From Phytobacter massiliensis JC163 (GTDB lineage: Bacteria; Pseudomonadota; Gammaproteobacteria; Enterobacterales; Enterobacteriaceae), in the NCBI RefSeq assembly GCF_000321045.1, contig NZ_HE578947.1, positions 3,150 to 67,149 of the forward strand: DNA of 64,000 nucleotides. Reading direction: 5' to 3'. The notes under the pieces were generated by a model. It had not been told where the DNA came from, searched no databases, and saw only the letters and a program-made list of their open reading frames with translations. The first letter of the stretch is position 1; each line of letters begins with the position of its first letter. Position numbers and translations under genes: made by a program. Below are positions 29,406-47,966 of this stretch, piece after piece.

Positions 29406-30986
29406 TCATGTTGCGTCGCGCAGGCTCTCCCAGCTCAGCCCGAAGCGCGCCAGATATTTTCGCAGCCGATCGGCATCGTTGGGGTTCGCTTTTTTACGCC
29501 GGGAGACGGCGAACAGCTCGCGGCCCGCTTCGGAGAGCGACTGGCTACGCCGACAAACTTCAACTACCGTTTCCAGCTGCCGCTGGTCAAACAGATCGAT
29601 CTCTTCAACCAGCGCAGGGTGGGCGGGCGCGATGCGCCAGCTATGGCGTAAACGCGTAATCTCCTCCTCAACAAGCGCCAGCGTAATACGCCCCTGCTCG
29701 GCAAGCGTCGCCATGCGGAACACCGACGCGCTCAGCTCGCGGAAATTGCCGCGCCACAGCGCCTGCGGCGAGCAGGCAAACGCCAGATAGCGATCGCGGG
29801 CCTCTTTATCGAAACGAACCTGCGTCTGTTCGCTATCGGCGAAGCGTTGCAGCTCAAATTCAACGTTTGGCGCGATGTCTTCCCGCCGCTCGGCCAGCCC
29901 CGGCAGCGCAAAGCTCCACATATTAATGCGCGCGTAGAGATCTTCACGAAAATGCCCCTCAGCCACCCACTGGGGCATATCGCGGTGGGTTCCGGCGATG
30001 AGTTGAAAATCGCTGCGCACCTCTTTATCCGCGCCAAACGGGAAGAAGGTTTTCTCTTCTATCGCTTTTAATAGCATCGCCTGCTCATCCAGCCCCAGCT
30101 CGGCGATTTCATCCAGAAAAAGCACGCCGCCATCGGCTTCGCGCAGCAACCCGGCGCGGGGCGTTAACGCGCCGGTGAACGCGCCTTTAACGTGGCCGAA
30201 CAGCGTCGACATCGCGTTATCGCCGCGCAGCGTGGCGCAGTTCACCGCGACCAGCTTGCCTTGTACCTGGTGGCGTGACTGCTTAAGCTGAAAAATACGC
30301 CGGGCAAGGAAGGATTTCCCCGCCCCGGTCGGGCCGGTGAGCAGCATCGGCGAGCGTGAACGCAGCGCTACCCGTTCTATCTGGTCAATAAGCCGATTGA
30401 AGGTGGCGTTGCGGGTATCAATGCCCGCTTTCAGAAAAGAGACCGACTGCTGCTGTTCGCGCTGAAAACGGCTGGTAAGAGTGGCATAACGGCTTAAATC
30501 GAGATCGATAACCGAGCAGACTCCTGCGGCGACCGCCTCTTCTGGCGAGCCTTTCGGTGCCGGGCCGGTTTGCAGCAGGCTGGCGGGAAGGTAGCGGGCT
30601 TCGGTGAGCAGAAACCAGCAGATCTGCGCCACGTGGGTGCCGGTGGTGATATGCACCAGATACTCTTCATTCTCGGTATCGAAGTCGTAGCGGGTGGCGA
30701 AATCCAGAAAGGCCGCGTAGACCTCTTCGAAATCCCACGGGTCATTGATGCTGATAGCATGCGCCCGTACCTGAGTATGCGGGGAAAGCAGGGCGACATC
30801 CTCCGCCAGCTGCTGCGCCATTCCCGTATCCCGCGGCTGGTGGAGCAGTTCAAGCCGGTCGACTGGCAAATCAGGCTGCTGGCACAGCCCCACCGTTGGC
30901 CGCCATTTTCGGAACCTGTTTGCCCGCTTGCCGCGCTTATCCAGCACGGTTCCCAGTACGCCTATCACCACTCGCCGCTTTGCCAT
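29406..30986 (-). CDS. rtcR: sigma54-dependent activator RtcR (CARF sensor, AAA+ and HTH domains)
   Basis: 526-aa protein collinear with E. coli RtcR (...RLELLH..., ...NPWDFEEVYA..., ...GPTGAGKSFLARRI..., ...DADRLRKYLARFGL...). Confidence 0.9.
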   Translation of the reverse strand: MAKRRVVIGVLGTVLDKRGKRANRFRKWRPTVGLCQQPDLPVDRLELLHQPRDTGMAQQLAEDVALLSPHTQVRAHAISINDPWDFEEVYAAFLDFATRYDFDTENEEYLVHITTGTHVAQICWFLLTEARYLPASLLQTGPAPKGSPEEAVAAGVCSVIDLDLSRYATLTSRFQREQQQSVSFLKAGIDTRNATFNRLIDQIERVALRSRSPMLLTGPTGAGKSFLARRIFQLKQSRHQVQGKLVAVNCATLRGDNAMSTLFGHVKGAFTGALTPRAGLLREADGGVLFLDEIAELGLDEQAMLLKAIEEKTFFPFGADKEVRSDFQLIAGTHRDMPQWVAEGHFREDLYARINMWSFALPGLAERREDIAPNVEFELQRFADSEQTQVRFDKEARDRYLAFACSPQALWRGNFRELSASVFRMATLAEQGRITLALVEEEITRLRHSWRIAPAHPALVEEIDLFDQRQLETVVEVCRRSQSLSEAGRELFAVSRRKKANPNDADRLRKYLARFGLSWESLRDAT

Positions 30987-31120
30987 CTCTTATCCTTAAA
31001 GATAAACATTGATATGTAAGGATAAAAAAGATAGCGCGCCATAACAATTCATCGCAATGCGTTAAATTTAAAATATTTATTAATCAAGCAATTAAAAAAT
31101 AATTAGGGTGGCGCTGATTC

Positions 31121-31137
31121 TGGCACGCTTCTGGCAA
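31121..31137 (+). promoter_or_regulatory. sigma54 (-24/-12) promoter for the rtc operon
   Basis: TGGCACgcttcTGGCA fits TGGCAC-N5-TTGCA. It is divergent from rtcR, as in the E. coli rtcBA promoter. Confidence 0.7.
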
Positions 31138-31149
31138 TAGTTATCCTGC

Positions 31150-31300
31150 CATCGCACTGAGCACGCAGGGGATTGTAGCCCCGCCGGCGCATAAGGAACG
31201 GCAGACGCCGTTTTCCGCATGCGTTCCGTCAGTAAGTGGCAACCAGGGTTCGATTCCCAATTCACTCGCTAAGTGAAACTGGTTGTTAAATCTGGAAAAA
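31150..31300 (+). ncRNA. structured RNA element / tRNA-like (Y-RNA-like) candidate in the rtc operon leader
   Basis: It contains GGGTTCGATTCCC (a tRNA T-arm consensus), a perfect hairpin AACGGCagacGCCGTT nested in gcgcat...atgcg, GGGGattgtaGCCCC, and TTCACTcgctaAGTGAA. There is no ORF with an RBS. A structural alignment is needed to confirm it. Confidence 0.4.
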
Positions 31301-31442
31301 AACGGAGCGTTGAGCAGTCGGCAACCTCCAGAACAGGCTGCCGGTAACGATGCCGTGCCGCAGGCAAAAGGGAATTCCCCTGTCGCTTCGCCTCTGCGCC
31401 CGCGTCTGTCTCATCATTTAAGGAAAGAACAATGACAAAAAA

Positions 31443-32558
31443 ATGACTATCCGAAAAGGCCAACTGGGGCTGCTGGCAAAAGAGGGCGACTACTATCAGG
31501 TGCTGGAAGCGGGCGAGCACCGCCTGCCGTGGTTCAGCAAGCCGGAGGTGCTGATCGTTGAGCGCGACGGGAGCGAAGTTCCGCCTGCGCTGGCGGAATA
31601 CCTGCGTCGCTTTCAGCCTGAATGGGCCGCCCAGTACTGCCTGACGGTGGATTTAACGGAACATGAGGCGGGCGCGCTGTATATGAACGGCGTGTTGCAG
31701 GAGATTTTGCCACCGGCGACACGTCGCCTTTACTGGCTGGCCGATGAGGCGCTGAAACTGGTACGGCTGGACACGCGCCAGCGGCAGGTCCCCACGGACA
31801 TCATGAATGCGGTACTGCAACCGCGTCGCGGCGGCGCGGTAAAAGGGCGCGAAGCGATACTGACCGTGCAGGTTCCCGCCTGGCATGTAGGGGTGCTAAA
31901 AATCGACGGTGAAACCCAGGCGTTGTTGCCGCCGGGTCTTACCGCCTGGTGGAAAGTTAACCATCTGGTCGAGGCAGAAGTGGTGGATACCCGCCTGCAG
32001 GTGCTGGAGGTGAGCGGTCAGGAAATTCTCACTAAAGACAAAGTGAACCTGCGCCTGAACCTGGCGGCGAACTGGCGCTACAGCGATGTACTCCAGGCTT
32101 TTGGTCAACTGACGAAACCGCTGGATCATCTTTACCGCGAATTGCAGTTTGCCCTGCGCGAGGCGGTAGGCACACGTACGCTGGATGAGCTGCTGGAAGA
32201 TAAGCAGATCATCGATGAGGTCGTTAGCGCGCAGGTCAAAAGCCGCATGATGCCGTATGGCATTAAGGTGGCCTCGCTGGGGGTCAAAGACATTGTGCTG
32301 CCGGGCGATATGAAAACCATCCTCTCCCGGCTGGTTGAGGCGGAAAAATCGGCCCAGGCTAATGTCATCCGCCGTCGTGAAGAGACCGCCGCGACACGCT
32401 CGTTATTGAACACGGCGAAAGTCATGGAAAACAACCCGGTGGCGCTGCGCTTAAAAGAGCTGGAAACGCTCGAAAAAGTCGCGGAGCGCATCGATAAAAT
32501 TTCGGTATTCGGCGGTCTGGACCAGGTCCTGCACGGCTTAGTGAATATTAAAGGATAA
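31443..32558 (+). CDS. SPFH/band-7 (stomatin-like) domain protein with a distinct N-terminal domain and no TM segment
   Basis: The C-terminal half (...KDKVNLRLNLAANWRYSD...VKDIVLPGDMKTILSRLVEAEKSAQANV...) is an SPFH fold. It sits between the sigma54 promoter and rtcB. Confidence 0.7.
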   Translation: MTIRKGQLGLLAKEGDYYQVLEAGEHRLPWFSKPEVLIVERDGSEVPPALAEYLRRFQPEWAAQYCLTVDLTEHEAGALYMNGVLQEILPPATRRLYWLADEALKLVRLDTRQRQVPTDIMNAVLQPRRGGAVKGREAILTVQVPAWHVGVLKIDGETQALLPPGLTAWWKVNHLVEAEVVDTRLQVLEVSGQEILTKDKVNLRLNLAANWRYSDVLQAFGQLTKPLDHLYRELQFALREAVGTRTLDELLEDKQIIDEVVSAQVKSRMMPYGIKVASLGVKDIVLPGDMKTILSRLVEAEKSAQANVIRRREETAATRSLLNTAKVMENNPVALRLKELETLEKVAERIDKISVFGGLDQVLHGLVNIKG

Positions 32559-32563
32559 GAGAT

Positions 32564-33790
32564 ATGCAGCAGAATGATTTTGAACTGTTAATGGCGCAGA
32601 ACAGCGCGCCGGTGAAGATGTGGACCCACGGCGTGCCCGTGGAGCCGGAGGCGCAGGCGCAGCTGCTTAAAACCGCCAGAATGCCGTTTATTTTTAAGCA
32701 CCTGGCCGTCATGCCGGATGTGCATCTGGGTAAGGGTTCGACCATCGGCAGCGTTATCCCCACCAAAGGGGCGATCATCCCGGCCGCGGTGGGGGTGGAT
32801 ATCGGCTGCGGAATGATTGCCGTGCGCACGTCGCTGCTGGCAAGCGATCTGCCGGATAACTTAAGCGGGCTGCGCAGCGCCATTGAACGTGCCGTTCCCC
32901 ATGGGCGAAGCGTAGGGCGCGGTAAGCGTGACGTTGGCGCATGGGACACGCCGCCGGACGAAGTGAATGTTCACTGGGGGCAGTTGGCCGCGCGCTTTAA
33001 GCGGCTAACCGATAAATATCCCCGCCTGCTGAACACTAACAATCATCAGCATCTGGGAACATTGGGGACCGGTAACCACTTTATTGAAATCTGTCTGGAT
33101 GAGCAGCAGCGGGTGTGGGTGATGCTGCATAGCGGGTCGCGTGGGGTCGGTAACGCCATCGGTAATGTCTTTATCACCCTCGCGCAGCAGGATATGCAAC
33201 GGCATATCGCCAACCTGCCGGATCGTGATCTGGCCTACTTCCAGGAGGGAAGCCAGCATTATGAGGATTACATTGAGGCGGTGGAGTGGGCGCAGGATTT
33301 TGCCCGTCATAACCGGGAAGTGATGATGTCCCGCGTGCTGGCGGCGCTGTCGAAGAGCGTGACGAAGCCCTTTATGACGCAGCAGGAGGCGGTGAACTGC
33401 CACCATAACTACGTACAAAAAGAGCGTCATTTTGACGAAGAGGTGCTGGTGACGCGCAAAGGCGCGGTGTCGGCGCAGAAGGGGCAGATGGGGATCATCC
33501 CCGGCTCGATGGGGGCGAAAAGTTTTATCGTGCGCGGGCTGGGTAACGAAGAGAGCTTCTGTTCGTGCAGCCACGGCGCGGGACGCACCATGAGCCGTAC
33601 GGCGGCGAAAAAGCGCTTTACCGTTGAGGACCAGATCCGCGCCACCGCTCACGTTGAGTGCCGTAAAGACAGCGAGGTGATCGATGAGATCCCGATGGCC
33701 TACAAAGATATTGATGCCGTAATGGCGGCCCAGTCTTCGCTGGTGGAAATTGTGCATACGCTGCGTCAGGTGGTGTGCGTGAAAGGATAA
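32564..33790 (+). CDS. rtcB: RNA-splicing ligase RtcB
   Basis: 408-aa protein near-identical in conserved blocks to E. coli RtcB (...MPDVHLGKGSTIGSVIPTKGAIIPAAVGVDIGCGM..., ...CSCSHGAGR..., ...LRQVVCVKG). Confidence 0.95.
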   Translation: MQQNDFELLMAQNSAPVKMWTHGVPVEPEAQAQLLKTARMPFIFKHLAVMPDVHLGKGSTIGSVIPTKGAIIPAAVGVDIGCGMIAVRTSLLASDLPDNLSGLRSAIERAVPHGRSVGRGKRDVGAWDTPPDEVNVHWGQLAARFKRLTDKYPRLLNTNNHQHLGTLGTGNHFIEICLDEQQRVWVMLHSGSRGVGNAIGNVFITLAQQDMQRHIANLPDRDLAYFQEGSQHYEDYIEAVEWAQDFARHNREVMMSRVLAALSKSVTKPFMTQQEAVNCHHNYVQKERHFDEEVLVTRKGAVSAQKGQMGIIPGSMGAKSFIVRGLGNEESFCSCSHGAGRTMSRTAAKKRFTVEDQIRATAHVECRKDSEVIDEIPMAYKDIDAVMAAQSSLVEIVHTLRQVVCVKG

Positions 33791-33794
33791 AAAG

Positions 33795-34598
33795 ATGATG
33801 AACACGGTGGATGCCGCGATGCGCGAGCGTGTGATGCGGCAGTTAAAAGAGGTGGAGCAGCGTTTTGGCGTGCGGGTACTGTACGCCTGCGAGTCCGGCA
33901 GCCGGGGGTGGGGTTTTGCCTCGCCGGACAGCGATTACGACGTGCGCTTTTTGTATGTTCACCCGCCCGAGTGGTATCTGCGGGTGGAGGCGGCGCGGGA
34001 CGTTATCGAACTGCCAATAGATGATGAGCTGGACGTCTGCGGCTGGGAGTGGCGCAAGGCGCTCGGCCTGTTGAAAGGGGCCAACCCGACGCTTATCGAG
34101 TGGCTGGACTCGCCGGTGGTTTATCAGCAGGACGGCGCCACCGTGGCGGCGCTAAAAGCGCAGGTGCCTCGCTGGTTCTCCCCCGTGCGCGCCCGCTGGC
34201 ACTACTATTCGATGGCGCGCAAAAACTTTCGTAGCTATCTGCAGGGTGACGAGGTGCGGCTGAAAAAGTACTTTTATGTGCTGCGCCCTCTGCTGGCGGT
34301 GCGTTGGGTAGAGGCGGGTAAAGGCGTCCCGCCGATGCGTTTTGCCGAACTGCTGGCAGGTAGTGAACTGGACGCGCCGTTGCGCCGGGAAATCGACGAT
34401 CTGCTTGCTCGCAAACAGCGCGCCGGAGAGGCGGAGTATGGCCCGCGCCGCCCGCTGCTGCATGCTTTCCTGAATGCCGAACTGGCCAGGGGTGAGATCC
34501 CGCCCGTATTGCCGGACAGCAGGGAGGGAAATAGCAGCGAACTGGATAGTTTGCTGTATCAGACCGTTATGGCCCCGCAGTCCCCGGATGCGGCATAG
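33795..34598 (+). CDS. Pol-beta-superfamily nucleotidyltransferase, in the position normally held by rtcA
   Basis: It has the motif GSRGWGFASPDSDYDVRFLY (GS...D.D). It is 4 nt downstream of rtcB, and there is no RtcA-like ORF. Confidence 0.65.
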   Translation: MMNTVDAAMRERVMRQLKEVEQRFGVRVLYACESGSRGWGFASPDSDYDVRFLYVHPPEWYLRVEAARDVIELPIDDELDVCGWEWRKALGLLKGANPTLIEWLDSPVVYQQDGATVAALKAQVPRWFSPVRARWHYYSMARKNFRSYLQGDEVRLKKYFYVLRPLLAVRWVEAGKGVPPMRFAELLAGSELDAPLRREIDDLLARKQRAGEAEYGPRRPLLHAFLNAELARGEIPPVLPDSREGNSSELDSLLYQTVMAPQSPDAA

Positions 34599-34640
34599 CC
34601 TTATCCGGGCTACTCTTTGTAGCCCGGCTCGGTTTTAAGG
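34598..34640. repeat. REP-type extragenic palindrome
   Basis: gccttatccgggctac...gtagcccggctc. The reverse complement (gtagcccggataaggc) recurs near 57745. Confidence 0.5.
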
Positions 34641-35090
34641 GTGGTATTGCCCACTGCTGACCAGCGCGTAGAGGTGGTTCGGTGAGTAGCGCCAGCTCTC
34701 ATTAAGCCCCAGAAACGCCGCGCAAAACTCGCTGCAAAACAGCCTGTTGCGATGCTCTTTGTTGCCCAATACAATCCCCAGCGCTCCCTGCCAGTCGTAG
34801 CGTTTGCCGTCATGCTGGCGGAAAAACGCCTCCACTTCCGGCAGACTTGTCTGCAATGGCAGCTTATCCCACTTATCATCCGGCAACGGCATCAGCTTGC
34901 CGCGTACGCCGCGATCGCGAAACGAAGCCGAGTAACAGAGGTACTCATTTCCGCCGCGCGCCACGGCCAGTTCACAGTGGGAGTAGATCCCACGCGTGAT
35001 TTTGCGGGTCAGCCAGTCGGCAACCCTGGCAATGCCCCGGTGCTCCGCCCGCCCTTTATAGCAGGCGAGCCAGACGGTGGCGTTACTCAT
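34635..35090 (-). CDS. YiiX/YaeF-like permuted papain-fold (C92) hydrolase
   Basis: It has ...RLFCSEFCAAFL (like the YiiX LYCSELV catalytic-Cys block) and an upstream ...GIYSHCELAV (His block). It is 72 nt downstream of the tail-fibre gene on the same strand. Confidence 0.5.
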   Translation of the reverse strand: MSNATVWLACYKGRAEHRGIARVADWLTRKITRGIYSHCELAVARGGNEYLCYSASFRDRGVRGKLMPLPDDKWDKLPLQTSLPEVEAFFRQHDGKRYDWQGALGIVLGNKEHRNRLFCSEFCAAFLGLNESWRYSPNHLYALVSSGQYHP

Positions 35091-35161
35091 GGCTGCCAGC
35101 CTGGGGTGTAGTCGTAAAATGATTTTTGATTAAATATGATTCCATTTTATTTATCCTGTTA

Positions 35162-36835
35162 TTATACAGTAATGGCTTGTGGGCGAATTTCTCCATACAT
35201 ACCAGTGACTGCATTAGTGAAAAGCTGCCTTCCATATTCTTCAGGATCATCTTTTGACGCGGTAAATAAAATCTCTGTACCTATTCCTTCGATATCACAG
35301 GTGAAATTGATAGAGTTATATGTTCCCTCATTTAAATCTTTATAATTAGCGTAAGGATTTCGTATATTCTTTACTCTAGAGGTATTACCTATAGGGACTC
35401 GTTGGATTAACATGTTTGTAGTCAAATATTGATGGAGCACATCCGTTTTATCATGCTGTGCAGCATTGCATGTCCACCAAATTCCTGGTAAATAGGCAGT
35501 TGCATTCATGTTTTTACCCATGGAAAAGCCTGGCCCCGATAAAAAGCAGCAAGAGGATAAAGTACTGCCAGCTCTAATTTCGCCTTGCTTTATATCATCT
35601 ATTTGATTAAGACTTGATTGGGTATTCTTTATAAATGGAACAGTAGCTAAACAATACGCGCCATCCCCATTTACCTTAGGGTAAAGCCCCTTAATTTGAT
35701 CGGCAGTATGAGTATGATTCGCCGGTGCCGCCGCATTCGCCTTGTCCATCGCCGCTTTCACCGCGCTCGGCGTCGCCGCTTCGGTGGTGCTGGTGCTGTT
35801 AGTGGCATTATTCAGCTTCACCACCCCTTTCTGGGTCAGGGTGCCATCCGGTACGCCGGTGACCTGATTCCAGGGGTGGGTGTGGCTGGCCGGTGCGGCC
35901 GCATTCGCCTTATCCATTGCCGCTTTCACCGCGCTCGGCGTCGCCGCTTCGGTGGTGCTGGTGCTGTTAGTGGCGCTGTTCAGCTTCACCACCCCTTTCT
36001 GGGTCAGGGTGCCGTCCGGTACGCCGGTGACCTGATTCCAGGGGTGAGTGTGGCTGGCCGGTGCGGCGGCATTCGCTTTATCCATCGCTGCTTTCACCGC
36101 GCTCGGCGTTGCTGCTTCGGTGGTGCTGGTGCTGTTGGTGGCGTTGTTCAGCTTCACGATCCCTTTCTGGGTCAGGGTGCCGTCCGGCACGCCGCTTATC
36201 TGGCTCCAGGTATGGGTGTGATTACGCGCTTCGGCCAGCGCTGCTTTCACCGCTTTCGGCGTGGCGGCTTTGGTTTCGTCATCGCTGTTGGTGGCGTTGC
36301 TGAGCTGCGTAAAGCCTTTTTGCGTGAGCGTGGCGTCCGGGTGTCTGGTGGAGTGCTCGTGCTCATCCAGCAGCGAATCCACATAGTCGCGGGTTGCCAG
36401 CACCACGCTGGGGTCAACGGTCAGGGTGACCGCCGTGGTGTTGGACACTTCCATAATCAGACGAATGCAGACCTGCTTGCCGCTGCCGCCGGGCAACAGC
36501 GGCTTGTAGGACTCCGGGAACTTGCCGATGGCGATCAGATCGCCGTCGGTGTCGAATACCCCCACCTCGCGCACGTACCAGCCGCCGATGTTTTCCGGCA
36601 GTACTACTTCGGCAATCAGCCAATTGGGGTTATTGGGCGCGACCGTCAGGGTATTCATCTCACCGCGCCAGACTTCGCGACGTAATTTCGTCTGGTTAAC
36701 GGCAGGCTCATAATATTGCCCGCCGCCGTCGCCAACCGCCATCTTTTGCAGATGCAGCTGTTTTTTCTCCGCCAGCGCGGCGGCGATTTTCGCCATCCCC
36801 TTATTGGTCAGGAGAGTATAAAATTCATTATCCAT
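35162..36835 (-). CDS. phage tail fibre protein (P2 gpH-like N-terminus, repeat region, low-GC C-terminal receptor-binding domain)
   Basis: The N-terminus (...MAVGDGGG...WRGEMN...IAEVVLPENIGGWYVREVGVFD...ESYKP...HPDATLTQKGFTQLSNATNS) resembles P2 gpH. It has P2 fibre-repeat units TLTQKG.VKLN.ATNSTS..EAATPSAVKAA. Confidence 0.85.
   Translation of the reverse strand: MDNEFYTLLTNKGMAKIAAALAEKKQLHLQKMAVGDGGGQYYEPAVNQTKLRREVWRGEMNTLTVAPNNPNWLIAEVVLPENIGGWYVREVGVFDTDGDLIAIGKFPESYKPLLPGGSGKQVCIRLIMEVSNTTAVTLTVDPSVVLATRDYVDSLLDEHEHSTRHPDATLTQKGFTQLSNATNSDDETKAATPKAVKAALAEARNHTHTWSQISGVPDGTLTQKGIVKLNNATNSTSTTEAATPSAVKAAMDKANAAAPASHTHPWNQVTGVPDGTLTQKGVVKLNSATNSTSTTEAATPSAVKAAMDKANAAAPASHTHPWNQVTGVPDGTLTQKGVVKLNNATNSTSTTEAATPSAVKAAMDKANAAAPANHTHTADQIKGLYPKVNGDGAYCLATVPFIKNTQSSLNQIDDIKQGEIRAGSTLSSCCFLSGPGFSMGKNMNATAYLPGIWWTCNAAQHDKTDVLHQYLTTNMLIQRVPIGNTSRVKNIRNPYANYKDLNEGTYNSINFTCDIEGIGTEILFTASKDDPEEYGRQLFTNAVTGMYGEIRPQAITV
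35717..36220 (-). repeat. three tandem 168-bp (56-aa) repeats inside the tail-fibre gene, plus a degenerate fourth unit upstream
   Basis: The units HTHPWNQVTGVPDGTLTQKGVVKLN.ATNSTSTTEAATPSAVKAAMDKANAAAPAS are near-identical at the DNA level. The same relationship appears on the opposite strand as the RRRFGGAGAV runs in ORF 35696..36685. Confidence 0.85.
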
Positions 36836-36837
36836 AA

Positions 36838-37470
36838 TTACTCCGGGTAAATAGACGTAATTTCAAGGCTCCATTGCCCTGTGCCAAAATAAACTGGCTT
36901 AGTTTGTTGAACTTCCAGTACCTGGAAGGGTGAAATAGTGGTAATTTCGCCGCCAAAAAGGGCGCAGCCCAGTACCGGTATTGCGCTCTGGTTAATAATC
37001 CAGATAATCAGTGCTTCCAGCTTTGAACGCACATTTTTATATTCATGAATCAGCTCTACCAGATGATTAAAAAGCGGTTCATCGATGCCATTGTTAATAA
37101 GCTCAATTTCAATTTTGAAAAAATACGCTTTGCCACCGTATTCAAACCATTCGGCAATAGTGCCAGGTAACGATAATATCTCCAGCACGCGACGAACGGC
37201 CCAGGGCGTCCCTTTATATTTGTGCAGCTCAATGGCCTGCTTGATTAATTCCCGCTTCTCCTTTTCATTGCGGGCGAATAACCAGCCCTCCAGTCCCTGC
37301 ACATGAAACTGTTCGGCCAGCGAAGGCAGCGCAGAGGCGTCAACCAGATCCACCAGGTAAATAAGCAGCGCCGTCAGATCCATTTGTGCGAAGCGTTCGG
37401 CGGCGATGTTCGCCAGAAGCGAAAAGCGCTCATCGCGGGCAAGCGGCGGCGGCAGATGCAATTTATCCAT
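36838..37470 (-). CDS. phage baseplate/tail protein gpI-like
   Basis: It sits between gpJ and the fibre as in P2 (J-I-H). It is 210 aa, and its start overlaps the gpJ stop. Confidence 0.7.
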   Translation of the reverse strand: MDKLHLPPPLARDERFSLLANIAAERFAQMDLTALLIYLVDLVDASALPSLAEQFHVQGLEGWLFARNEKEKRELIKQAIELHKYKGTPWAVRRVLEILSLPGTIAEWFEYGGKAYFFKIEIELINNGIDEPLFNHLVELIHEYKNVRSKLEALIIWIINQSAIPVLGCALFGGEITTISPFQVLEVQQTKPVYFGTGQWSLEITSIYPE

Positions 37471-38475
37471 CGCTCACTCCGGCAATCGTCACGTCAATAA
37501 TGATGCATTCCGCCCATACATGCGCCAGCAGTTCACGTTTGGCAGGCTGTTCCAGCGCCACGTCGTAAACGCCATCCACCTGCAGCACTTTGATTATCTG
37601 ATTCGGCACAATATCCTGGCCGAGCCGCGTCTGGCGCTGCTGGGTCCATGCTTCAATTGCCGCGCGGGCGGCGGCAAGGGTGGCCGCCTGATCGGCATGG
37701 GTAAAGAGCGTCAGCCGGGCGCGAATCTGATAAGGCACCCGCGGCGGCAATTTGACGCTGACCTTATCGGTCAGCGGGCGCTTTTTGTCCTTGCCCACTT
37801 CCTGCTGAATTTGGGCAAGCAGTTCCGTCCCCGGCATGCCGTTCAGCGTCAGTGGATAGATCTCCACGCAGCCTTCCGGCAACCCTTCATCCGGCCCCAG
37901 TATCGCCACGTCGATAATTGACTGGCTGACGGAAAGCGTATGAAAACGGTATGCCCCGTAGCTGCCTGCGTTACTGAAACTTTCTGGTGCCAGCCTGATA
38001 CGCTCCCGCAGCGCGTCGTCGCTCTCTTCATCGCAACCGCCAGCCGAGGTCGTCAGGTTGGTTACCTTCACCGGATAGCTGCTGATCCTGTCCATCAGGG
38101 CGCTGATTTGCGCAGGTTCCCAGCCGTTGCCCGCTTCACCGGTTACAAGACAGGTGGCGGTGACAGCCGCCTCTGGCTTGTTGGGCAGAACCCTGACATC
38201 CTCTTCGCTGGCTGAGCGGGCAGGCGGTGAACGCCAACCAGTTCGCCTAAATAATCCAGCATGGGGGCGCGGGAATAGGCCACCAGGTTTTGCTTCGCCG
38301 CCTCCTGAATGGCGATGCGGACAAGGTTTTCACGATAGGCAATCAGGTCGATAAGCAGCCGCTCCGCCTGTGCCGGATAGAGTTTTTTACCGCTGGCCTT
38401 TTCATATTGCGCGATTATCTCGCTGGTAATTTGCGCGGGGTCGCGGTCGATAAAATCGGGTTCGGCTATCGCCAT
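37463..38475 (-). pseudogene. phage baseplate assembly protein gpJ-like; frame interrupted (ORFs 38143..38475 and 37463..38095, with a third frame carrying sense between them)
   Basis: The N-terminal ORF (MAIAEPDFIDRDPAQITSEIIAQYEK...LVGVHRLPAQPA) becomes nonsense after about residue 94. The C-terminal ORF (...ESFSNAGSYGAYRFH...) resembles P2 gpJ. Between them the frame ...VLPNKPEAAVTATCLVTGEAGNGWEPAQIS reads sensibly, which implies two single-nt gaps near G/C runs (about 38200 and about 38098). Confidence 0.7.
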
Positions 38476-38825
38476 AACACCTCCGTAGAGTTAATAACGC
38501 CGTCTGCGGCGCGCCATTGCACATGAAGCGTCAGGTGTTCGCCGTCAATCGTCGGCGTCACCTTGAGCAGGCGGCAACGTGGCTCCCACATGCGGATCGC
38601 CTCCACCGACTCCCGTACCACGTGCGGAATAGCTCGCTCGACGGGATAGTCGATATAGCGCCACAGGTTGCTGCCAAACAGCGGTCTGTGAGGATCGCTG
38701 CCGCGCGGCGTGCGCAGGATGATGTGTATTGCCTGATGAATATCGTCCAGCCCGCAGACATATTCTTCAGGGCGCTGCAGGGCAGGTTGCCAGTGCAGGG
38801 TTGAGGGTCGTGTTTTCGTGTTCAT
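38466..38825 (-). CDS. phage baseplate protein gpW/gp25-like
   Basis: 119-aa protein of GPW/gp25-family size. It is in the V-W-J order of a P2 baseplate module. Confidence 0.75.
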   Translation of the reverse strand: MNTKTRPSTLHWQPALQRPEEYVCGLDDIHQAIHIILRTPRGSDPHRPLFGSNLWRYIDYPVERAIPHVVRESVEAIRMWEPRCRLLKVTPTIDGEHLTLHVQWRAADGVINSTEVLWR

Positions 38826-39001
38826 GCGGCTATTTTCACCTCAACGGAGGCGGCGCGATATTAAAGCGCTTTAGGAAAGGAGTTGATTAAAGAGAGAAAA
38901 ATCGCCGCATCGGGCGTCCCGGATGCGCTTCGCTTATCCAGGCTACAGTTAGCGGCAGGAGGCGCACCCGGGAACCCCGGATACGCCGTGCGGCGGGTGG
39001 G

Positions 39002-39745
39002 TTAGTGAGAGTGGTGGTTTGAGTTGCCGCCGCTGTCCATAACTGAACCGCTGGCTTTTAGGTTGCCCTGAATATTAACGTTGCCGGTGATCACCGCACT
39101 GCTGCCAGCGCCGCTGCTGCCTGCCATGCCGCCAAGCCAGGTCAGTTTTTTCATCACCGTAACATTGCCGGTAAAGGTGCTAATCGGCGCATCCACCGTT
39201 ACATCCAGCGCTTTAATGCCGGTACGGGCAGCCTCCACGCTGACATCAACGGCCTGTACCGCCACCTGGCTTGCCTCCACGCTCACGTCAGTGGCCTTCA
39301 CGCTGACCGTCTCCGAGGTCACATTTACCTGTTGCGCTTTTACCTCCACCAGCGGCGAGGTGAGGCGGGTACTCTCTTTCACCTCAATCACTATCTTTTC
39401 GATACCGCCGTTGATGGTGAGCTGGTGCGATTGACGATCGTATTCAAAAGCCGCGCCGTCGGAAAAATGCACGTAGCGTTTGTCGCGCGAGGCCAGCGGC
39501 GCGGTGTCAACCGTGGAGTAAACCGCCCCCAGCACCACGCCGTCTTCACCGTTGTCATCAAGCAGAACCTCGACCTGTTCGCCCATATCCGGCAGCCAGT
39601 AGTCTTTGTTGTCCTGCGTATTGCGCTGCAGAACCGGCAGCCAGTTGCTTTGCAGATTATCGCACTCCGGCAGAGTAACCCTGACGAGAACCGTGGTCTC
39701 GTCGATGTCGCTGATAATTCCCGTCTGGCGGGTAACGCCTTTCAT
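39002..39745 (-). CDS. phage baseplate spike gpV-like
   Basis: It has an N-terminal OB-like domain followed by short V/S/T-rich beta-helix repeats (VNVTSETVSVKATDVSVEASQVAVQAVDVSVEA...) and a Gly-rich C-terminus with HHSH. Confidence 0.75.
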   Translation of the reverse strand: MKGVTRQTGIISDIDETTVLVRVTLPECDNLQSNWLPVLQRNTQDNKDYWLPDMGEQVEVLLDDNGEDGVVLGAVYSTVDTAPLASRDKRYVHFSDGAAFEYDRQSHQLTINGGIEKIVIEVKESTRLTSPLVEVKAQQVNVTSETVSVKATDVSVEASQVAVQAVDVSVEAARTGIKALDVTVDAPISTFTGNVTVMKKLTWLGGMAGSSGAGSSAVITGNVNIQGNLKASGSVMDSGGNSNHHSH

Positions 39746-39754
39746 GTCGTCTCC

Positions 39755-40795
39755 TTACTGGCTGGTCGCCGGTCCGCGTGAAATGTCGATTTCGGTGGTA
39801 TAGCCGCTGCGGGTAAATCGATGCATTGATTTATCAATCAGCCACTGGCCGGACAGAACGCCGAAGCCGGTCAGTTCGATTTTGTTCCCCGCGGTCAGCT
39901 GCGGGCAGCCCATCAGGCTCAGCGTGCCGGTCTGCTGATACTCGTTATGGCTGTCCAGCGCGGCGTTGGCTTTCGCCTGCGCCGCGCCGGTATCGGGCGC
40001 GCGGCTGTTGAGCTTGAGAGTATCGGCGCTGGTTGCCGCCCCCCTGGCCGACGGTTTTTGCTGGCTATCGTGGGTATAAATAACCAGCTCCTTTTTCTTG
40101 CCGTTTTGATGTTGTACGGTGGCGTTCTTATAGATCCGGTTGATGGTATCGTTAAAGGTGTAATGGCCGATATCCGTCCGATCGAGGGTTTTCACCGGCG
40201 CAAGGCAGCGCAGCGAAGGCAGATGTGAAAAGACAAGCTCCGCCGCCGTCACCTTGACGGTGTAGCCGTACTCACTGGCCAGACGCTTGAGAAACGCAAT
40301 ATCGGTTTCCGCGTACTGCGTTACCCGGTCAATGTTCAGGGTAGCGATGTGCCCCACCAGCTTTAAGCCGTGCTTTTGCGCAATACGGCTGGCGATGGCG
40401 GCAAGGGTGGTCTCTTCAAACCCCTCGCTGTTTCTGGTGCGCAGCGCTTTGCTGACCGAGGTGGCGATGCCGTCAATATTCACCGTGGACGGCGGCGCGC
40501 TGATATCAATTTTATCAATGATATAGACGCCGCAATCCAGCAGTTCCTCCCCCTGGTAGCCCAGATGCAGGGCAAGGGTATCGCCTTTGCCGGGATACCA
40601 TTCGTTCACCCAGCGGCCTTCGCTGTCTTCCAGCGTAATGGCGATAACATCCGACTCGTTCTTGATGCTGTCGCTGTAGCTGATGCTAGTGACATAAGGG
40701 GCGATATCGTAAGTAATATCCTTATGCCCGTACCAGAGCGTAAAAATGGGCGTTAGCGTGGCACAGACGCCGCCGGACAGGGTTATCTCAGCCAT
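39755..40795 (-). CDS. phage late-control gene D (gpD)-like tail protein
   Basis: 346-aa protein. It is in the tape measure (gpT)-U-X-D order. Confidence 0.7.
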   Translation of the reverse strand: MAEITLSGGVCATLTPIFTLWYGHKDITYDIAPYVTSISYSDSIKNESDVIAITLEDSEGRWVNEWYPGKGDTLALHLGYQGEELLDCGVYIIDKIDISAPPSTVNIDGIATSVSKALRTRNSEGFEETTLAAIASRIAQKHGLKLVGHIATLNIDRVTQYAETDIAFLKRLASEYGYTVKVTAAELVFSHLPSLRCLAPVKTLDRTDIGHYTFNDTINRIYKNATVQHQNGKKKELVIYTHDSQQKPSARGAATSADTLKLNSRAPDTGAAQAKANAALDSHNEYQQTGTLSLMGCPQLTAGNKIELTGFGVLSGQWLIDKSMHRFTRSGYTTEIDISRGPATSQ

Positions 40796-40992
40796 GGCGC
40801 CAGCTCCGTTGTGGTCTGCGTGGCGCGCACGACAGGGATGATTAACCGTACGCCGGACGGCAGCACCGCCGTGATGGCAACATGAGGATTCGCGGCGATA
40901 AGCCGCTCATAGGCGAGGGCGTCGCCATAGTAGCGCCAGGCGAGGTTGTCCCAGCGCTCCCCCTCTGTGGTGATGTGTTCAAGGTAGCGCAT
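40783..40992 (-). CDS. phage tail protein gpX-like (LysM-like)
   Basis: 69-aa protein with ...WDNLAWRYYGDALAYERLIAANPHVAITAVLPSGVRLIIP, which fits the P2 gpX pattern (...ICVRYYG...LAANPGL...LP.G..). Confidence 0.75.
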   Translation of the reverse strand: MRYLEHITTEGERWDNLAWRYYGDALAYERLIAANPHVAITAVLPSGVRLIIPVVRATQTTTELAPWLR

Positions 40993-41945
40993 TACACCCT
41001 CCTCGTGACGATCGCGGCGGCGATAAGGCTGGTCGCCGTGGTGGTTTTTTGCACGCTGTTACGCGCCTCGTTGACCTGCGAAGCGGCGTCGTTGAAGAGG
41101 GCTTCCGCCGCGCTTTGCTTGAAGGTGTCAAACAGCGATTTGGCATGTTCAAGCAGCGTGGTCGCGTCGTGGGCGCAGTCACGGATGCCCGGCAGGCTGT
41201 CGATCAGCGCCTGGATTTGCGCGGAGAGCGCGGCAGGCATTGCCGCCAGCGTTTGTAAATCCAGCGGCTGGCGCAAAAGCGCCTCCGTTGCGTCGATGAT
41301 TTTTTTCAGCGTATTGATGGTGTTGATGCACTTCTCTTTCAGCGCCTTCGCCTCCTTTATCAAATCTTTTGCCTGCGCGACCATTTTTTTGGCCTCCTCA
41401 ATGGCGTCGGCTATATCGTCCATCATCGCTCTGGCGTCGCGCATTCCGTCTTCGATGGTCTTCATCAGGTCATCGAACCAGCTGTCGCCAAGCCGCGGGA
41501 AATCCTGCCACTGCTCATCAATATTTGGGTCCTGCGTTGAGACTGCGGGCGGCAACAGCGGGCTCTTCGGGTTACCGGTGTACTCCTGCAGCGACAGGCT
41601 ACCGCTCTGGGCAATCACGTTGCCGTAAGGATCGGTGTGCTGGTGGGTAGCCGTCAGGTCGGTTATCACGAACCAGCCGCGGTAATCGCCGTTGCCAAAC
41701 ACCAGCGCCATCGCCTGATGCGCGGTCATGGCTTGCCGCAGGCGGTTCAGCTCCGCTGTCGGCTGACAGTACTGGCTGTGGAAACTGAACTGCAGCGTAA
41801 TTTTGTCCAGCTTGTCGCCGATAAACTGCACCCCTGGTTTACCTTCGATACGGGCATGAGAGGCGTAATCCACGCCCATTGTGTTTTCGAAGCCGTCCCA
41901 GTAAGCAACGACCTCAAACTCTATTTCTCCTAATACGGCATACAT
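40992..41945 (-). CDS. phage tail protein gpU-like with a C-terminal coiled-coil extension of about 160 aa
   Basis: The N-terminal roughly 150 aa are gpU-like (...GKPGVQFIGDKLDKITLQFSFH..., ...GWFVITDL...). The C-terminus is rich in A/E/K/L heptads. Confidence 0.6.
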   Translation of the reverse strand: MYAVLGEIEFEVVAYWDGFENTMGVDYASHARIEGKPGVQFIGDKLDKITLQFSFHSQYCQPTAELNRLRQAMTAHQAMALVFGNGDYRGWFVITDLTATHQHTDPYGNVIAQSGSLSLQEYTGNPKSPLLPPAVSTQDPNIDEQWQDFPRLGDSWFDDLMKTIEDGMRDARAMMDDIADAIEEAKKMVAQAKDLIKEAKALKEKCINTINTLKKIIDATEALLRQPLDLQTLAAMPAALSAQIQALIDSLPGIRDCAHDATTLLEHAKSLFDTFKQSAAEALFNDAASQVNEARNSVQKTTTATSLIAAAIVTRRV

Positions 41946-44272
41946 CAGGCGTACCCCCGGCGCTGTTGCTGCGCCATCACATCGTTAATCATTTTTTCCA
42001 GCTGGTGTTTATTCAGCGCCAGCACCTTGTTGACCTCTCCGGCGGCATTCGCGCCGTTCCCCTGGACGGTGACCTGCGGCGAAAAATGAACCTGTACATT
42101 CCCCTGAGCGCGCGGCGGCAATACCAACGGTTTCGCAGCGGTTTTTGGCGGTACGCTAAGAGGGGAAGGTGTGACAGGCGATTTCGCCCCTGTCGCGAGT
42201 GGCGGAGGAACCGGGCCAGCCAGCGCCATTCCGGCGACGCCCGGCATTATTGCAGCGCCCTGTGGCTCAACGCTGATGCCAATAACTTTCTTCAACCAGT
42301 CCGGGATATAGCTTTTTATCTTGCTGAACACCTCCCCCAGAACGGGGAATGCCTTCACCAGGCTGTTAACCAGGCTACTTATCATTTTGCCGCCGAATTC
42401 GCTAAAGCTGGCAGGCAGGTCAATGCCGAGCCAGCTCATCAAACCGGCGAACGCTTTGTAAAATATGCCCAGCGGCGACCAGTCGAGAATGAACGCCGTA
42501 ATGCCCAACACACCGCCAGCAAAGATCTCTTTGATGCGCTCCCAGAGTCCCAGAAAGAACTTTTTAATCGGCTCAAAATAGCGGTAAATCAGCAATACCG
42601 CGCCGACGATGACGGAGATAATGCGGCCCAGGGGCGTCATGAGCAGGAAACGGAGAACCCAGCGTCCCAGCGTCATAAAAACTCTGCCCAGCCCTTTTAG
42701 TCTGCTTCCCAGTTGCAGAAAGCCTCTGCCCAGCCCTTTCAGCCAGCCACCCACTCTCGACAGACCGCCGCCTAGCCCTTTCAGCGCGTTCCATGCTTTC
42801 CCGATGGCGCCGCTCAGGGCCAGGCGGGCTTTTAATTTGAGGAACAGATCGATCAGGCGAATAATTGGCGAGGCGACAAGGTTCGCTCCCAGCTTCAGGA
42901 CGCTGAGCGCGCCGTTGAACAGCCAGATTGCGCCGATAAATTTGGCGATGCCCTGTACCAGCGCCGGGTTATCACGCAGCCAGGCGCTGAACTGGCGAAT
43001 AAGCGGGGTAAGGCTTACCGCCAGATCGCCGATCGCCGGCATGAGCTGCAGGCCGACGGTGAGCCACAGATCGTTGAGCGCCAGCTGCAACGCTTTGGTC
43101 TGCTCAAGGGGAGAGGACATCCTGGTGGTGAAATCGCTGTCCAGCATGGTGCTCTGCCCGGCCTGCATATTAGACGTTTTCAGCTGCTGAAATTCGCCGC
43201 TGTTCGCCAGCATCGGCGCGAGGAAATCCAGCGTTTGCCTGTCGCCGAACATCTCGCCGAGATTAAATTGCGTGACCAGAGCCTGTAGCGCATCTGCCCG
43301 GGCGCTAAGATCGTCAATTTTCATGGCCTGCTTAAACTGGTCGAGGATCAGCGGGTTCATTTTCTGCAGCTGCATTTCGACGATATGGGCCATGGCCTGC
43401 GCCACGCCCAGGCCGTTTTGTTGGTGCTCCAGCAGCGAGCCCCGCAGATCCACCCCCTGGCTGGCAAACCAGTTATCCGTCTTCCTGGAGAAGGTGGTGT
43501 GCAGGAAATGGGCGAAATTATCCTCCGCAGCGGCAGCGCTGGGGGCGTTTTGCATCGCGATTTGCTGTGTCGCCGCCAGTTCCGCAAGCCCCTCTGTTCC
43601 CTGCGCGCCTGTCCGCGCGGCAAAGCGTTCAATCCACAGGGTTTGATCGGCCACGGAGACGCCGCCGTTCTTCGCGACGTCCGCCAGCATCGTCTGCGCG
43701 ACGTGGAACGCTTGCGGAGCAATATGCAACTGGTTGCGGGTCGAGATGGCCGCCTGCGCCCAGGTTTGCGCGCTGTCGCGGGTGGCGGTGGCGGCTTTGG
43801 CGATGTCGGGCATATAGCGGTTGAGCTCATGCAGGGAACGGATTCCGCCTTCCATCATCGTGGTGGCGGCATCCTGCAGGGCCAACTGATCCTGATTGAA
43901 ATCGAGGCTCCAGTCGCGCAGATTCAGGCTCAGAGCGTCGCGTGTATCGTCATCCATGTCGTTTTTGATGGCCATATTGACCATGCCGTCCTGAAACTCG
44001 AAGGGCAGCCGCCAGTCTGGCTGCTCTACCAGCAAAAGTTTGCCCATCTGACTGATAAATGTGCGGGTTTCGGTGAGCAAGGCTTCACGACGGTTGCTGT
44101 TTTCTTCCCGGCGTAAGGCGGATGCCGTTAGCTGCTGTGTAAGTCTGGTGATTTTTTCATGCTCAGTGCTGAGCGATTGTAACTGGCGGGCGTTACGTGA
44201 GCCGTTACGGGCAATTGCCTGCGTCAACGTCTCATTACGCGCCTGTAGCTGGGTCATAATGTCGTTGGCCAA
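41945..44272 (-). CDS. phage tail tape-measure protein
   Basis: 775-aa protein with an alpha-helical/coiled-coil N-terminus, a Gly-rich hydrophobic central region (...LKGLGGGLSRVGGWLKGLGRGFLQLGSRLKGLGR...), and a position between gpE/E' and gpU. Confidence 0.85.
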   Translation of the reverse strand: MANDIMTQLQARNETLTQAIARNGSRNARQLQSLSTEHEKITRLTQQLTASALRREENSNRREALLTETRTFISQMGKLLLVEQPDWRLPFEFQDGMVNMAIKNDMDDDTRDALSLNLRDWSLDFNQDQLALQDAATTMMEGGIRSLHELNRYMPDIAKAATATRDSAQTWAQAAISTRNQLHIAPQAFHVAQTMLADVAKNGGVSVADQTLWIERFAARTGAQGTEGLAELAATQQIAMQNAPSAAAAEDNFAHFLHTTFSRKTDNWFASQGVDLRGSLLEHQQNGLGVAQAMAHIVEMQLQKMNPLILDQFKQAMKIDDLSARADALQALVTQFNLGEMFGDRQTLDFLAPMLANSGEFQQLKTSNMQAGQSTMLDSDFTTRMSSPLEQTKALQLALNDLWLTVGLQLMPAIGDLAVSLTPLIRQFSAWLRDNPALVQGIAKFIGAIWLFNGALSVLKLGANLVASPIIRLIDLFLKLKARLALSGAIGKAWNALKGLGGGLSRVGGWLKGLGRGFLQLGSRLKGLGRVFMTLGRWVLRFLLMTPLGRIISVIVGAVLLIYRYFEPIKKFFLGLWERIKEIFAGGVLGITAFILDWSPLGIFYKAFAGLMSWLGIDLPASFSEFGGKMISSLVNSLVKAFPVLGEVFSKIKSYIPDWLKKVIGISVEPQGAAIMPGVAGMALAGPVPPPLATGAKSPVTPSPLSVPPKTAAKPLVLPPRAQGNVQVHFSPQVTVQGNGANAAGEVNKVLALNKHQLEKMINDVMAQQQRRGYA

Positions 44273-44368
44273 AGTAAATTCTTCCGTTTGATGGCCCGGC
44301 GGCAGGCTTTCTTGAAATGGCAGAGAAGGGGCAGGAAACCGGGCGTAAGGTTGGGAGACCCGCAGGCG

Positions 44369-44575
44369 TTACGCCTGCGAATCGTATTCGTGTTTTATCT
44401 GGGTGTTCGCTTCGTCCAGCCAGCGGGTGAAATCCTCAACCGCCAGGGCATCGATCTCACTGGGCGGAAAGCGAAACCATCTCGCCAGCAGCGCCATTGC
44501 CTGCCATAGCTGCGGCGGATTCTGTAGCCATACCGAGCATGGCCTGAAATCGCTTTTGCAGCGCCTGATAATCAA
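44369..44575 (-). CDS. gpE' -1-frame extension region (probable programmed frameshift product E+E')
   Basis: The -1 frame continues past the gpE stop and reads ...WFRFPPSEIDALAVEDFTRWLDEANTQIKHEYDSQA. Tail-chaperone frameshifting is conserved in this gene arrangement. Confidence 0.5.
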   Translation of the reverse strand: MIIRRCKSDFRPCSVWLQNPPQLWQAMALLARWFRFPPSEIDALAVEDFTRWLDEANTQIKHEYDSQA

Positions 44576-47953: not shown

Positions 47954-47966
47954 TGGCCTCCTCTGA

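Follow-up and report, generated by a model that had tools for sequence, protein, structure and literature searches.

What kind of RNA-repair system arises when the ligase gene rtcB is accompanied by a gene for an SPFH/Band-7 protein and by a nucleotidyltransferase gene, and what is the role of the long RNA leader that precedes them? This question is raised by a locus of the enterobacterium Phytobacter massiliensis, which was analyzed here within a window of 64 kb (the whole stretch of DNA under study; all coordinates are window positions). RtcB-centered repair operons are thought to be a main recovery route from tRNA- and rRNA-cutting toxins and from damage-induced nucleases. In the window, the regulatory gene rtcR diverges from a sigma54-type promoter, a structured leader, and the genes for the SPFH protein, RtcB, and the nucleotidyltransferase RlaP (Table 1). 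We consider it quite probable that these parts form a damage-inducible, RtcR-controlled Band-7/SPFH–RtcB–RlaP repair operon in a reduced, enterobacterial form, working by the mechanism proposed below. The locus is a known and widespread kind of operon, from which it departs by having neither a tRNA-like cloverleaf nor rtcA. The added value of the present analysis is a conserved, covariation-supported domain at the 5' end of the leader that lies outside Rfam.

The identity of the regulator and the ligase follows from profile searches. The rtcR product matches Pfam RtcR (9e-81, residues 3-188) together with Sigma54_activat, scores 832 bits against the NCBIfam equivalog RNA_repair_RtcR (cut-off 650), and is recognized by PADLOC as RtcR--CARF_AAA_HTH with 873 bits; it is 63% identical to E. 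coli RtcR and identical to WP_044180901 of Phytobacter massiliensis. RtcB (Pfam RtcB, 9e-131), identical to WP_044180907, shares 72.5% of its residues with E. coli RtcB over 407 positions and has retained every one of the six residues that make up the E. coli active site, for metal binding and the GMP-histidine (D75, C78, H168, H185, H281, and H337). Both proteins are thus clear orthologs, as an earlier, sequence-only reading of this stretch had stated. RtcR is also the only PADLOC match in the operon; the SPFH protein, RtcB, and RlaP match no defence model.

The same reading had described a 267-residue nucleotidyltransferase of Pol-beta fold, and this description holds: residues 9-255 align with positions 1-248 of the 249-position Pfam profile PF10127 (3.7e-94; 315.5 bits against a gathering cut-off of 23), and the Pol-beta motif hG[GS]...[DE]x[DE] is present at residues 35-49 as GSRGWGFASPDSDYD (GS...DxD). 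PF10127 is titled "RlaP, RNA repair pathway DNA polymerase beta family" and was named for its linkage to RNA ligases; the enzyme therefore belongs to RlaP and not to the aminoglycoside-type nucleotidyltransferases. It is identical to WP_044180910 and matches the phage family phrog_14344 ("nucleotidyltransferase"), and no solved structure for RlaP was detectable by sequence search. In P. aeruginosa and P. fluorescens, where rlaP lies between rtcB and rtcA, RlaP adds one or two nucleoside monophosphates to the 3'-OH of damaged RNA, according to a 2025 preprint (PMC12776372). The earlier guess that the P. massiliensis enzyme may add nucleotides during repair agrees with this activity, which homology would extend to it.

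The first gene of the operon encodes a protein with a Pfam Band_7 match (6e-25) and no transmembrane segment (maximum Kyte-Doolittle hydropathy over 19 residues, 0.99), in keeping with the soluble, 371-residue SPFH/Band-7 protein first described. Its scores against the NCBIfam models of HflK and HflC fall far below the cut-offs, and it is 45-87% identical to SPFH proteins of loci with the same gene order. The N-terminus is predicted to form beta strands, and the beta-repeat region of ~135 residues that it comprises gave no match. No NfeD or FtsH partner gene is encoded near the SPFH gene. Long C-terminal helices like those of this protein drive the assembly of stomatin, HflK/C, and prohibitin into rings or cages. 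Compared with such cage-forming proteins (stomatin, HflK/C, prohibitin, QmcA) and with the SPFH-like shoulder of the major vault protein, the protein encoded here lacks a membrane anchor; it further differs from the cage-forming proteins by its additional N-terminus and the missing NfeD/FtsH neighbor, and its oligomerization is suggested by the fold. Some homologues, noted in three related loci and as two proteins, reach ~510-550 residues and have an extra copy of the N-terminal beta-repeat (two tblastn segments per gene).

The start of the SPFH gene differs from that of its relatives, in which the reading frame begins four codons earlier with an in-frame ATG-xxx-AAA-AAA-AT(G/C) and the protein has 375 residues. 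The window has A7 where the relatives have A8, so that ATG 31432 opens a mini-ORF of four codons. This difference is either a homopolymer indel or a sequencing error, and the SPFH protein may be expressed by re-initiation after the mini-ORF.

Several lines of evidence support the reality of the operon. According to the list of open reading frames (ORFs), only 5 nt separate the SPFH gene from rtcB and 4 nt separate rtcB from rlaP, whereas 456 bp lie between the SPFH gene and the divergent rtcR. Terminator-like sites on the + strand between the promoter and the end of the nucleotidyltransferase gene were found only at 34596-34627, and a promoter scan found no sigma70-like promoter between the operon genes. 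The bare sigma54 pattern occurs in the window at chance level (three matches, 3.5 expected). The promoter is invariant in all eight enterobacterial loci, equivalent sites lie 470-610 nt upstream of the SPFH gene in ~30 rtcR-linked loci from other taxa, and the site is absent from loci without rtcR. The usual spacing after the -12 element would place the transcription start near 31147, and gene spacing, strand, and terminator point to a single transcript carrying the leader, the SPFH gene, rtcB, and rlaP. Because gene order and promoter are conserved, the gaps are short, and no internal promoter or terminator was found, these genes probably constitute a true operon. All the parts listed in the sequence-only reading were recovered by the ORF list and profile searches within the coordinates it gave, and they are as tightly spaced behind TGGCAC-N5-TGGCA as it had stated; nothing points to independent transcription of the flanking genes. 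Its functional interpretation as an RNA-repair operon under RtcR/sigma54 control is likewise supported by the protein identities, the promoter, and the spacing.

The missing cyclase gene was also part of that interpretation, which placed the SPFH protein and the nucleotidyltransferase in the position of RtcA. The absence was confirmed, as a tblastn search with E. coli RtcA found no homologue in the 64-kb window, but the idea of replacement did not hold. In 17 related loci, tblastn located RtcA in the same operon as the SPFH protein and RlaP, either after RlaP or between RtcB and RlaP. Since RtcA shares the operon in these loci, the SPFH protein and RlaP are additions that coexist with RtcA, not substitutes for it.

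To place the locus among its relatives, the SPFH family was collected as 539 clusters at 50% identity (E<=1e-30), and a scan of one genome per species yielded 80 related loci, which were mapped by tblastn; most of them are chromosomal and linked to rtcR. The common order, with rtcR on the opposite strand, a gap of 450-730 bp, and then the genes for the SPFH protein, RtcB, and RlaP, is found in Burkholderia, Pseudomonas, Dechloromonas, Azonexus, Chitiniphilus, Acidovorax, Delftia, Undibacterium, and others. The nearest relatives of the window are reduced further: in Citrobacter, Klebsiella, Superficieibacter, Lonsdalea, and Mangrovibacter, the order is rtcR, leader, SPFH, and RlaP, without rtcB, and some E. 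coli strains have only the promoter, leader, SPFH, and RlaP, with rtcR and rtcBA located elsewhere. The window is thus an enterobacterial locus that retains rtcB, yet like its relatives has no rtcA in the operon. We propose that the operon lost both the cloverleaf and rtcA relative to its relatives outside Enterobacteriaceae.

Variation within these loci offers further observations. Promoter, leader, SPFH, and RlaP are kept in seven loci without rtcB in the operon, among them E. coli CFSAN061771 and a Citrobacter; E. coli CFSAN061771 has no adjacent rtcR, so that its control would depend in trans on RtcR encoded far away, at the rtcBA locus. Twelve other loci carry the SPFH gene, in part with rtcB, in the absence of rtcR, and large tRNA arrays stand upstream. 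These arrays, with up to 28 tRNAs in one locus and 16 in another, lie directly upstream of the leader domain and the tRNA-like gene, on the SPFH strand, and such loci look like a combined island of spare tRNAs and RNA repair. Finally, gaps of 400-900 bp separate the SPFH gene from rtcB in nine non-enteric loci and in others, and could hold another small gene or RNA.

Parts of this architecture have been noted before. Burroughs and Aravind predicted in 2016 that, in certain bacteria, RtcB is encoded beside a Band-7 protein and a tRNA-like "b7a-tRNA," as related by Wang et al. (2018, bioRxiv 10.1101/312249); as of 2018, the b7a-tRNA was still experimentally unvalidated (bioRxiv 10.1101/312249). 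As citing papers describe it (bioRxiv 10.1101/312249, PMC12776372), that system likewise combines an SPFH protein with RtcB and RlaP, and the Band-7 gene is immediately preceded by a non-coding RNA region; its defining cloverleaf is missing here. In P. aeruginosa, PA4582 and PA4584 were assigned to the rtc locus (PMC8619066), and the SPFH protein PaFlo8 was described in a 2026 paper as "embedded within the rtc locus" (PMC13086221). The locus PA4581-PA4585, which comprises rtcR, PA4582 (PaFlo8), rtcB, PA4584 (RlaP), and rtcA, has the same order as the window and a divergent rtcR (PMC8619066, PMC13086221, PMC12776372). Four Pseudomonas loci of our set share both this order and the 5' leader domain of the window. 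Pseudomonas also has rtcA, and the Pseudomonas loci examined carry two tandem tRNA-like genes in the leader; neither feature occurs in the window. The novelty implied by the sequence-only reading is therefore not supported, given that the order is widespread among related loci and is noted in three of these sources (PMC8619066, PMC13086221, bioRxiv 10.1101/312249).

That reading was right that an SPFH protein is not part of the textbook rtc operons. The rtcR-rtcBA locus of E. coli is likewise divergent and under sigma54 control; unlike the window, it has a 188-bp intergenic region without a long leader, contains rtcA, and encodes neither an SPFH protein nor RlaP. A further likeness is offered by rsr-yrlBA-rtcBA of Salmonella Typhimurium, also a repair operon with RtcB under RtcR/sigma54 control, which encodes a ring- or scaffold-type protein (an orthologue of Ro60) and tRNA-mimicking non-coding RNAs (Y RNAs) from the same transcript. 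The differences are that the partner protein in the window is SPFH and not Ro/TROVE, that the RNA is encoded ahead of all the operon genes and not between them, that the hallmarks of YrlA are missing, and that there is no rtcA. In the ORF list and Pfam searches, no Ro/TROVE gene was found in the operon.

The leader provides the main new result. By lining up the transcripts from the sigma54 promoter, a domain of ~97 nt was found that stands at the 5' extremity in all rtcR-linked loci aligned. It consists of a closing helix (P1), a short hairpin (P2), and a long hairpin (P3), the base helix of which has the form CGG-YGC / GYR-(T[G/T])-CCG with a 2-nt bulge; this helix is present in the window, upstream of the SPFH gene and on the same strand. 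In an alignment of 21 sequences from enterics, Burkholderiales, and Pseudomonas, 93.5% of the alignment cells were paired as compared with 71.8% after shuffling; none of 500 shuffles reached as high, slid pairing partners gave at most 52%, and 15 of the 19 pairs showed compensatory change. With 53 sequences, the values were 95.1% and 16 of 19 pairs, in an alignment that was fitted to the model and so leans toward the structure. Folding of the single leader was uninformative (z = -1.3), and the structure became clear only from comparison.

When 83 sources were searched with R2, a covariance model of this domain, 53 gave a match, in each case a single copy that precedes the SPFH gene on its strand; 32 of the 53 lay outside the seed alignment. 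The positive sources include loci lacking rtcR, rtcB, or rlaP, and the domain is kept in rtcR-less loci where arrays of tRNA genes stand in place of the promoter. It is absent from cyanobacterial loci and from several gammaproteobacterial loci. No Rfam 15 family was found for the leader: at thresholds of E<=1 for the region and E<=10 for the leader, the searches returned only noise (mir-133, R1162 antisense RNA, a plastid untranslated region), and in six related loci Rfam recognized tRNA alone. The domain is also not mentioned in two papers citing Burroughs and Aravind (bioRxiv 10.1101/312249, PMC12776372). The 5' leader domain is thus a real structured RNA that is not in Rfam, and the structured leader first read from the letters is backed by covariation in relatives.

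A small protein encoded in the leader was considered, as short ORFs exist, but was discarded: relatives differ by indels that would break a reading frame, their lengths not being divisible by three, and compensatory change preserves the pairing of the helices. A scan of viral contigs returned 71 pattern matches to the leader motif, none of which passed R2 or lay with an SPFH gene; these are chance matches. As a separate observation, the P2 hairpin of several Burkholderiales, noted in five loci, reads GGGTTCAAxxxCCC, with a loop resembling a T loop. Together with the T-loop hairpin described next and the T arm of the b7a-tRNA, one leader would then hold three T-loop-like hairpins.

Downstream of the 5' domain, enteric and non-enteric leaders diverge. 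In nearly every non-enteric locus, ARAGORN predicts a tRNA-like gene 250-440 nt upstream of the SPFH gene and on its strand. The anticodon loops of these genes are odd or variable, some being tetraloops, and Pseudomonas has two genes in tandem; we take them to be the b7a-tRNAs. With a covariance model built from 36 of them (R1), further non-enteric loci reach 56-88 bits. By contrast, R1 detects a T arm of 13-15 nt only, with 11.7-14.9 bits, in the leaders of the window and seven other enterobacterial loci; the match in the window has E 8e-4 in a search of 471 nt with filters off and E 0.56 in the large search. The hairpin loop is invariant in seven of the eight enterobacterial leaders. As ARAGORN found no tRNA in the window leader and the Rfam tRNA model gave no match at E<=10, the b7a-tRNA cloverleaf is absent from it, and only the T-loop hairpin remains.

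This hairpin is followed directly by a second one, which varies in concert on both sides in the alignment (TTCACT/AGTGAA, TTCATT/AATGAA, TTTCAT/ATGAAA, TTCGCC/GGTGAA) and is absent in Lonsdalea. By eye, TTCACT (31261-31266) could pair either with AGTGAA (31272-31277) or with an upstream AGTG (31235-31238), and in Citrobacter and Klebsiella sp. the letters have changed in a way that preserves either pairing (GATGA/TCATC upstream, ATGAAA downstream); the segment is a possible structural switch. An A-rich stretch leads to a third, predicted hairpin with a conserved loop, and the motif GCAGTA/C also occurs 3' of the b7a-tRNA in non-enteric loci. The last element, an extended hairpin that ends 13 nt before the Shine-Dalgarno-like sequence, is supported by moderate evidence from eight sequences only: 94.3% of cells were paired as compared with 85.1% after shuffling, none of 500 shuffles was as high, slid controls gave at most 48%, and 11 of 22 pairs showed compensatory change. 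In addition, many taxa have a pyrimidine-rich motif, YTCCCC, at 55-110 nt before the start codon.

Because the order of motifs (5' domain, T-loop, hairpin, GCAGT, YTCCCC) parallels that of the longer non-enteric leaders, the enteric leader resembles a shortened form of them, with a single T-loop hairpin left of the tRNA-like part. A cross-taxa MAFFT alignment from the b7a-tRNA to the SPFH gene was too noisy for a common structure. Two candidate identities were rejected. The 3' domain is not a decayed b7a-tRNA, as the full-length R1 alignment reached 1.3 bits and the motif order disagrees. YrlA-type Y RNAs carry GNCGAA(N0-1)G near the 5' end, a T stem-loop, an acceptor-like stem-loop, and a near-invariant D stem-loop, and are encoded beside rsr (PMC4201824). 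The leader likewise has a T-loop hairpin followed by a hairpin, but neither GNCGAA nor the GCTCA core of the D arm occurs in 31147-31442.

Table 1. Coordinates of the operon, its regulatory elements, and the predicted structures of its leader.
Feature	Position	Strand	Description
rtcR	29406-30986	-	526 aa; sigma54-dependent activator: N-terminal CARF-type RtcR domain, AAA+ domain, C-terminal region
Sigma54-type promoter	31121-31136	+	TGGCAC-GCTTC-TGGCA; GG 31122-31123, GC 31134-31135
Leader	from ~31147 to SPFH start	+	~295 nt, structured
Leader 5' domain	31147-31243	+	~97 nt; covariance model R2 match, 71.2 bits, E 6e-11
P1, closing helix	31156-31160 with 31229-31233	+	
P2, short hairpin	31168-31182	+	
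P3, long hairpin	31185-31228	+	conserved 2-nt bulge TT 31224-31225
T-arm-like hairpin	31246-31258	+	GGG-TTCGATT-CCC, GGGTTCGATTCCC; R1 positions 52-64, 11.7 bits
Hairpin	31261-31277	+	TTCACT-CGCTA-AGTGAA; directly 3' of T-loop hairpin; read from sequence
Hairpin	31304-31329	+	GGAG(C)GTTG-AGCAGTCGG-CAACCTCC; conserved GCAGTC loop; read from sequence and alignment
Leader 3' domain	31336-31407	+	72-nt extended hairpin; invariant GCAAAA...TTCCCCTG...CTTCG block; RNAalifold, 8 enterobacterial leaders
Shine-Dalgarno-like sequence	31420-31427	+	AAGGAAAG; read from sequence
Mini-ORF (MTKK, stop)	ATG 31432 to TGA 31446	+	stop overlaps SPFH ATG 31443 (ATGA)
SPFH/Band-7 ("slipin") gene	31443-32558	+	371 aa
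SPFH protein regions	residues 1-135; ~139-285; 287-351		beta-repeat N-terminal region; SPFH domain; long C-terminal helices
rtcB	32564-33790	+	408 aa; 3'-phosphate/5'-hydroxyl RNA ligase
rlaP	33795-34598	+	267 aa; Pol-beta-superfamily nucleotidyltransferase, PF10127
Terminator-like hairpin	34605-34627	+	9 bp, 7 G-C pairs, then CTCGGTTTTA; likely operon end

How would these parts work together? By analogy with Salmonella, for which the ligand and mechanism of RtcR were worked out (PMC7790460), RtcR would oligomerize and open the sigma54 promoter. Spacing, strand, and terminator suggest that one transcript would then run from the leader through the SPFH gene, rtcB, and rlaP to the terminator-like hairpin. 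The ligation chemistry of RtcB is established for the family, and with its active site intact the enzyme would perform the ligation here. RlaP, extrapolating from the two Pseudomonas enzymes, would add one or two nucleotides to the 3'-OH ends of RNAs that are short of nucleotides. Judging from its fold, the SPFH protein would most likely oligomerize in the cytoplasm into a scaffold or chamber that holds damaged RNA together with the repair enzymes. Most likely among its possible roles, the leader would serve the SPFH protein as its cognate RNA partner, once released from the transcript's 5' end, in the manner of the Y RNAs of Ro. We hold this last step only tentatively; it is favored over a role in cis because the 5' domain tracks the SPFH gene and not rtcR, rtcB, or rlaP, and because relatives embed tRNA-like modules in their leaders.

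Several points weigh against this mechanism. The RNA end left by RlaP is a 3'-OH, which RtcB cannot ligate, a gap flagged by the preprint itself (PMC12776372). RtcA is needed for RtcR-dependent induction in Salmonella (PMC7790460), yet it is absent from the window; either RtcA may lie elsewhere in the genome, or induction here may use cyclic ends made by nucleases. The cloverleaf that defines the published Band-7/b7a-tRNA prediction is missing. RNA binding by the SPFH protein is conjectural and its cage formation is drawn from similarity of fold; the transcription start, co-transcription, and leader processing in this organism are deduced from sequence features. Moreover, the mRNA begins with the leader, the 3' hairpin of which closely precedes the ribosome-binding site, an arrangement that fits cis regulation equally well.

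The strongest rival accordingly concerns the leader and would leave the identity of the operon unchanged. It holds that the leader is a purely cis-acting 5' untranslated region, which controls translation or transcription of the SPFH gene, and we regard it as a serious contender, though somewhat less likely than a released partner. The beginning of the 5' domain practically coincides with the inferred transcription start; the domain invariably precedes the SPFH gene directly, on the same strand, and it is kept where the cloverleaf has been lost. The position of the 3' hairpin 13 nt before the Shine-Dalgarno-like sequence, the YTCCCC motif upstream of the start codon, for which an anti-Shine-Dalgarno function is an idea only, and the two mutually exclusive pairing partners seen by eye after the T-loop hairpin would also suit such control. 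Conversely, T-loop hairpins and full cloverleaves in homologous leaders are typical of stable, processed RNAs, and a search of the leader revealed neither a canonical terminator nor a canonical attenuator. The non-coding RNAs of the analogous Salmonella operon, furthermore, are processed from the transcript and bind the accompanying protein (bioRxiv 10.1101/312249, PMC4201824).

A second rival is suggested by the chromosomal setting. Between rlaP and lysC, the - strand of the window (34635-48668) carries ~14 kb of phage tail fibre, baseplate, tail, tape-measure-sized, and endolysin-like genes, beginning 37 nt after rlaP; the same tail genes lie 3' of the SPFH-RlaP pair in E. coli CFSAN061771. 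The operon might then be cargo of a phage-like element, for example for anti-defence repair of tRNAs cut by host anticodon nucleases, and both RtcB and RlaP indeed have phage families in PHROGs, with many viral RlaP proteins reported, one of them in T4 (PMC12776372). Against this, Citrobacter carries rtcR, leader, SPFH, and RlaP at the same site, between yjbD and lysC-pgi with rlaP adjoining lysC, and has no phage genes there; in the window, lysC (49817-51166), pgi, and yjbEFGH resume after the tail cluster. The phage-like block is for these reasons an insertion beside the operon and not its carrier. The mostly chromosomal, rtcR-linked setting of the 80 related loci, the lack of PADLOC defence matches for the SPFH protein, RtcB, and RlaP, and the chance-level leader matches in viral contigs argue in the same direction, and we judge the cargo explanation improbable. 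The block itself shows no obvious capsid or integrase genes and could be a tailocin or a defective prophage. The gene next to rlaP (34635-35090, - strand, 151 aa), which converges on it, matches phrog_1128 ("moron," enoyl-CoA hydratase/carnithine racemase-like; E 2e-57); neither Pfam nor NCBIfam gave a match, and its E. coli counterpart is annotated as hypothetical.

That the SPFH and nucleotidyltransferase genes are unrelated neighbors of rtcB, and the leader a functionless, decaying relic of a tRNA gene, is very improbable: the tRNA-like element is indeed degenerate here (a 13-nt T-arm match of 11.7 bits) and rtcB is absent from the same locus in close relatives, but the gene order is conserved across beta- and gammaproteobacteria with gaps of 4-5 nt in the window and a conserved promoter, and compensatory changes have maintained the helices of the leader in 53 loci, which is unexpected of a relic.

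As a damage-inducible repair operon, the locus represents a compact system in an enterobacterium: its four genes do not include rtcA, and its leader has no cloverleaf. Fewer parts still are found in the close relatives Citrobacter, Klebsiella, and some E. coli. To our knowledge, RlaP has been characterized in a single 2025 preprint, and we know of no role established for the SPFH partner. The leader domain offers a defined, covariation-supported RNA target for SPFH binding or translation control. It is possible, if speculative, that this domain represents an undescribed class of structured RNA that serves as the obligate RNA partner or sensor of RtcB-linked SPFH proteins. If so, the enterobacterial leaders would be a natural experiment, in which the cloverleaf and often rtcB were discarded while the 5' domain, the T-loop hairpin, and the SPFH-RlaP pair were kept, and what the system conserves at its core would be an SPFH-RNA particle, not the tRNA mimic. 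With a soluble, possibly cage-forming protein that has an RNA of its own, SPFH biology would reach beyond membranes, in an echo of vault and Ro ribonucleoproteins.

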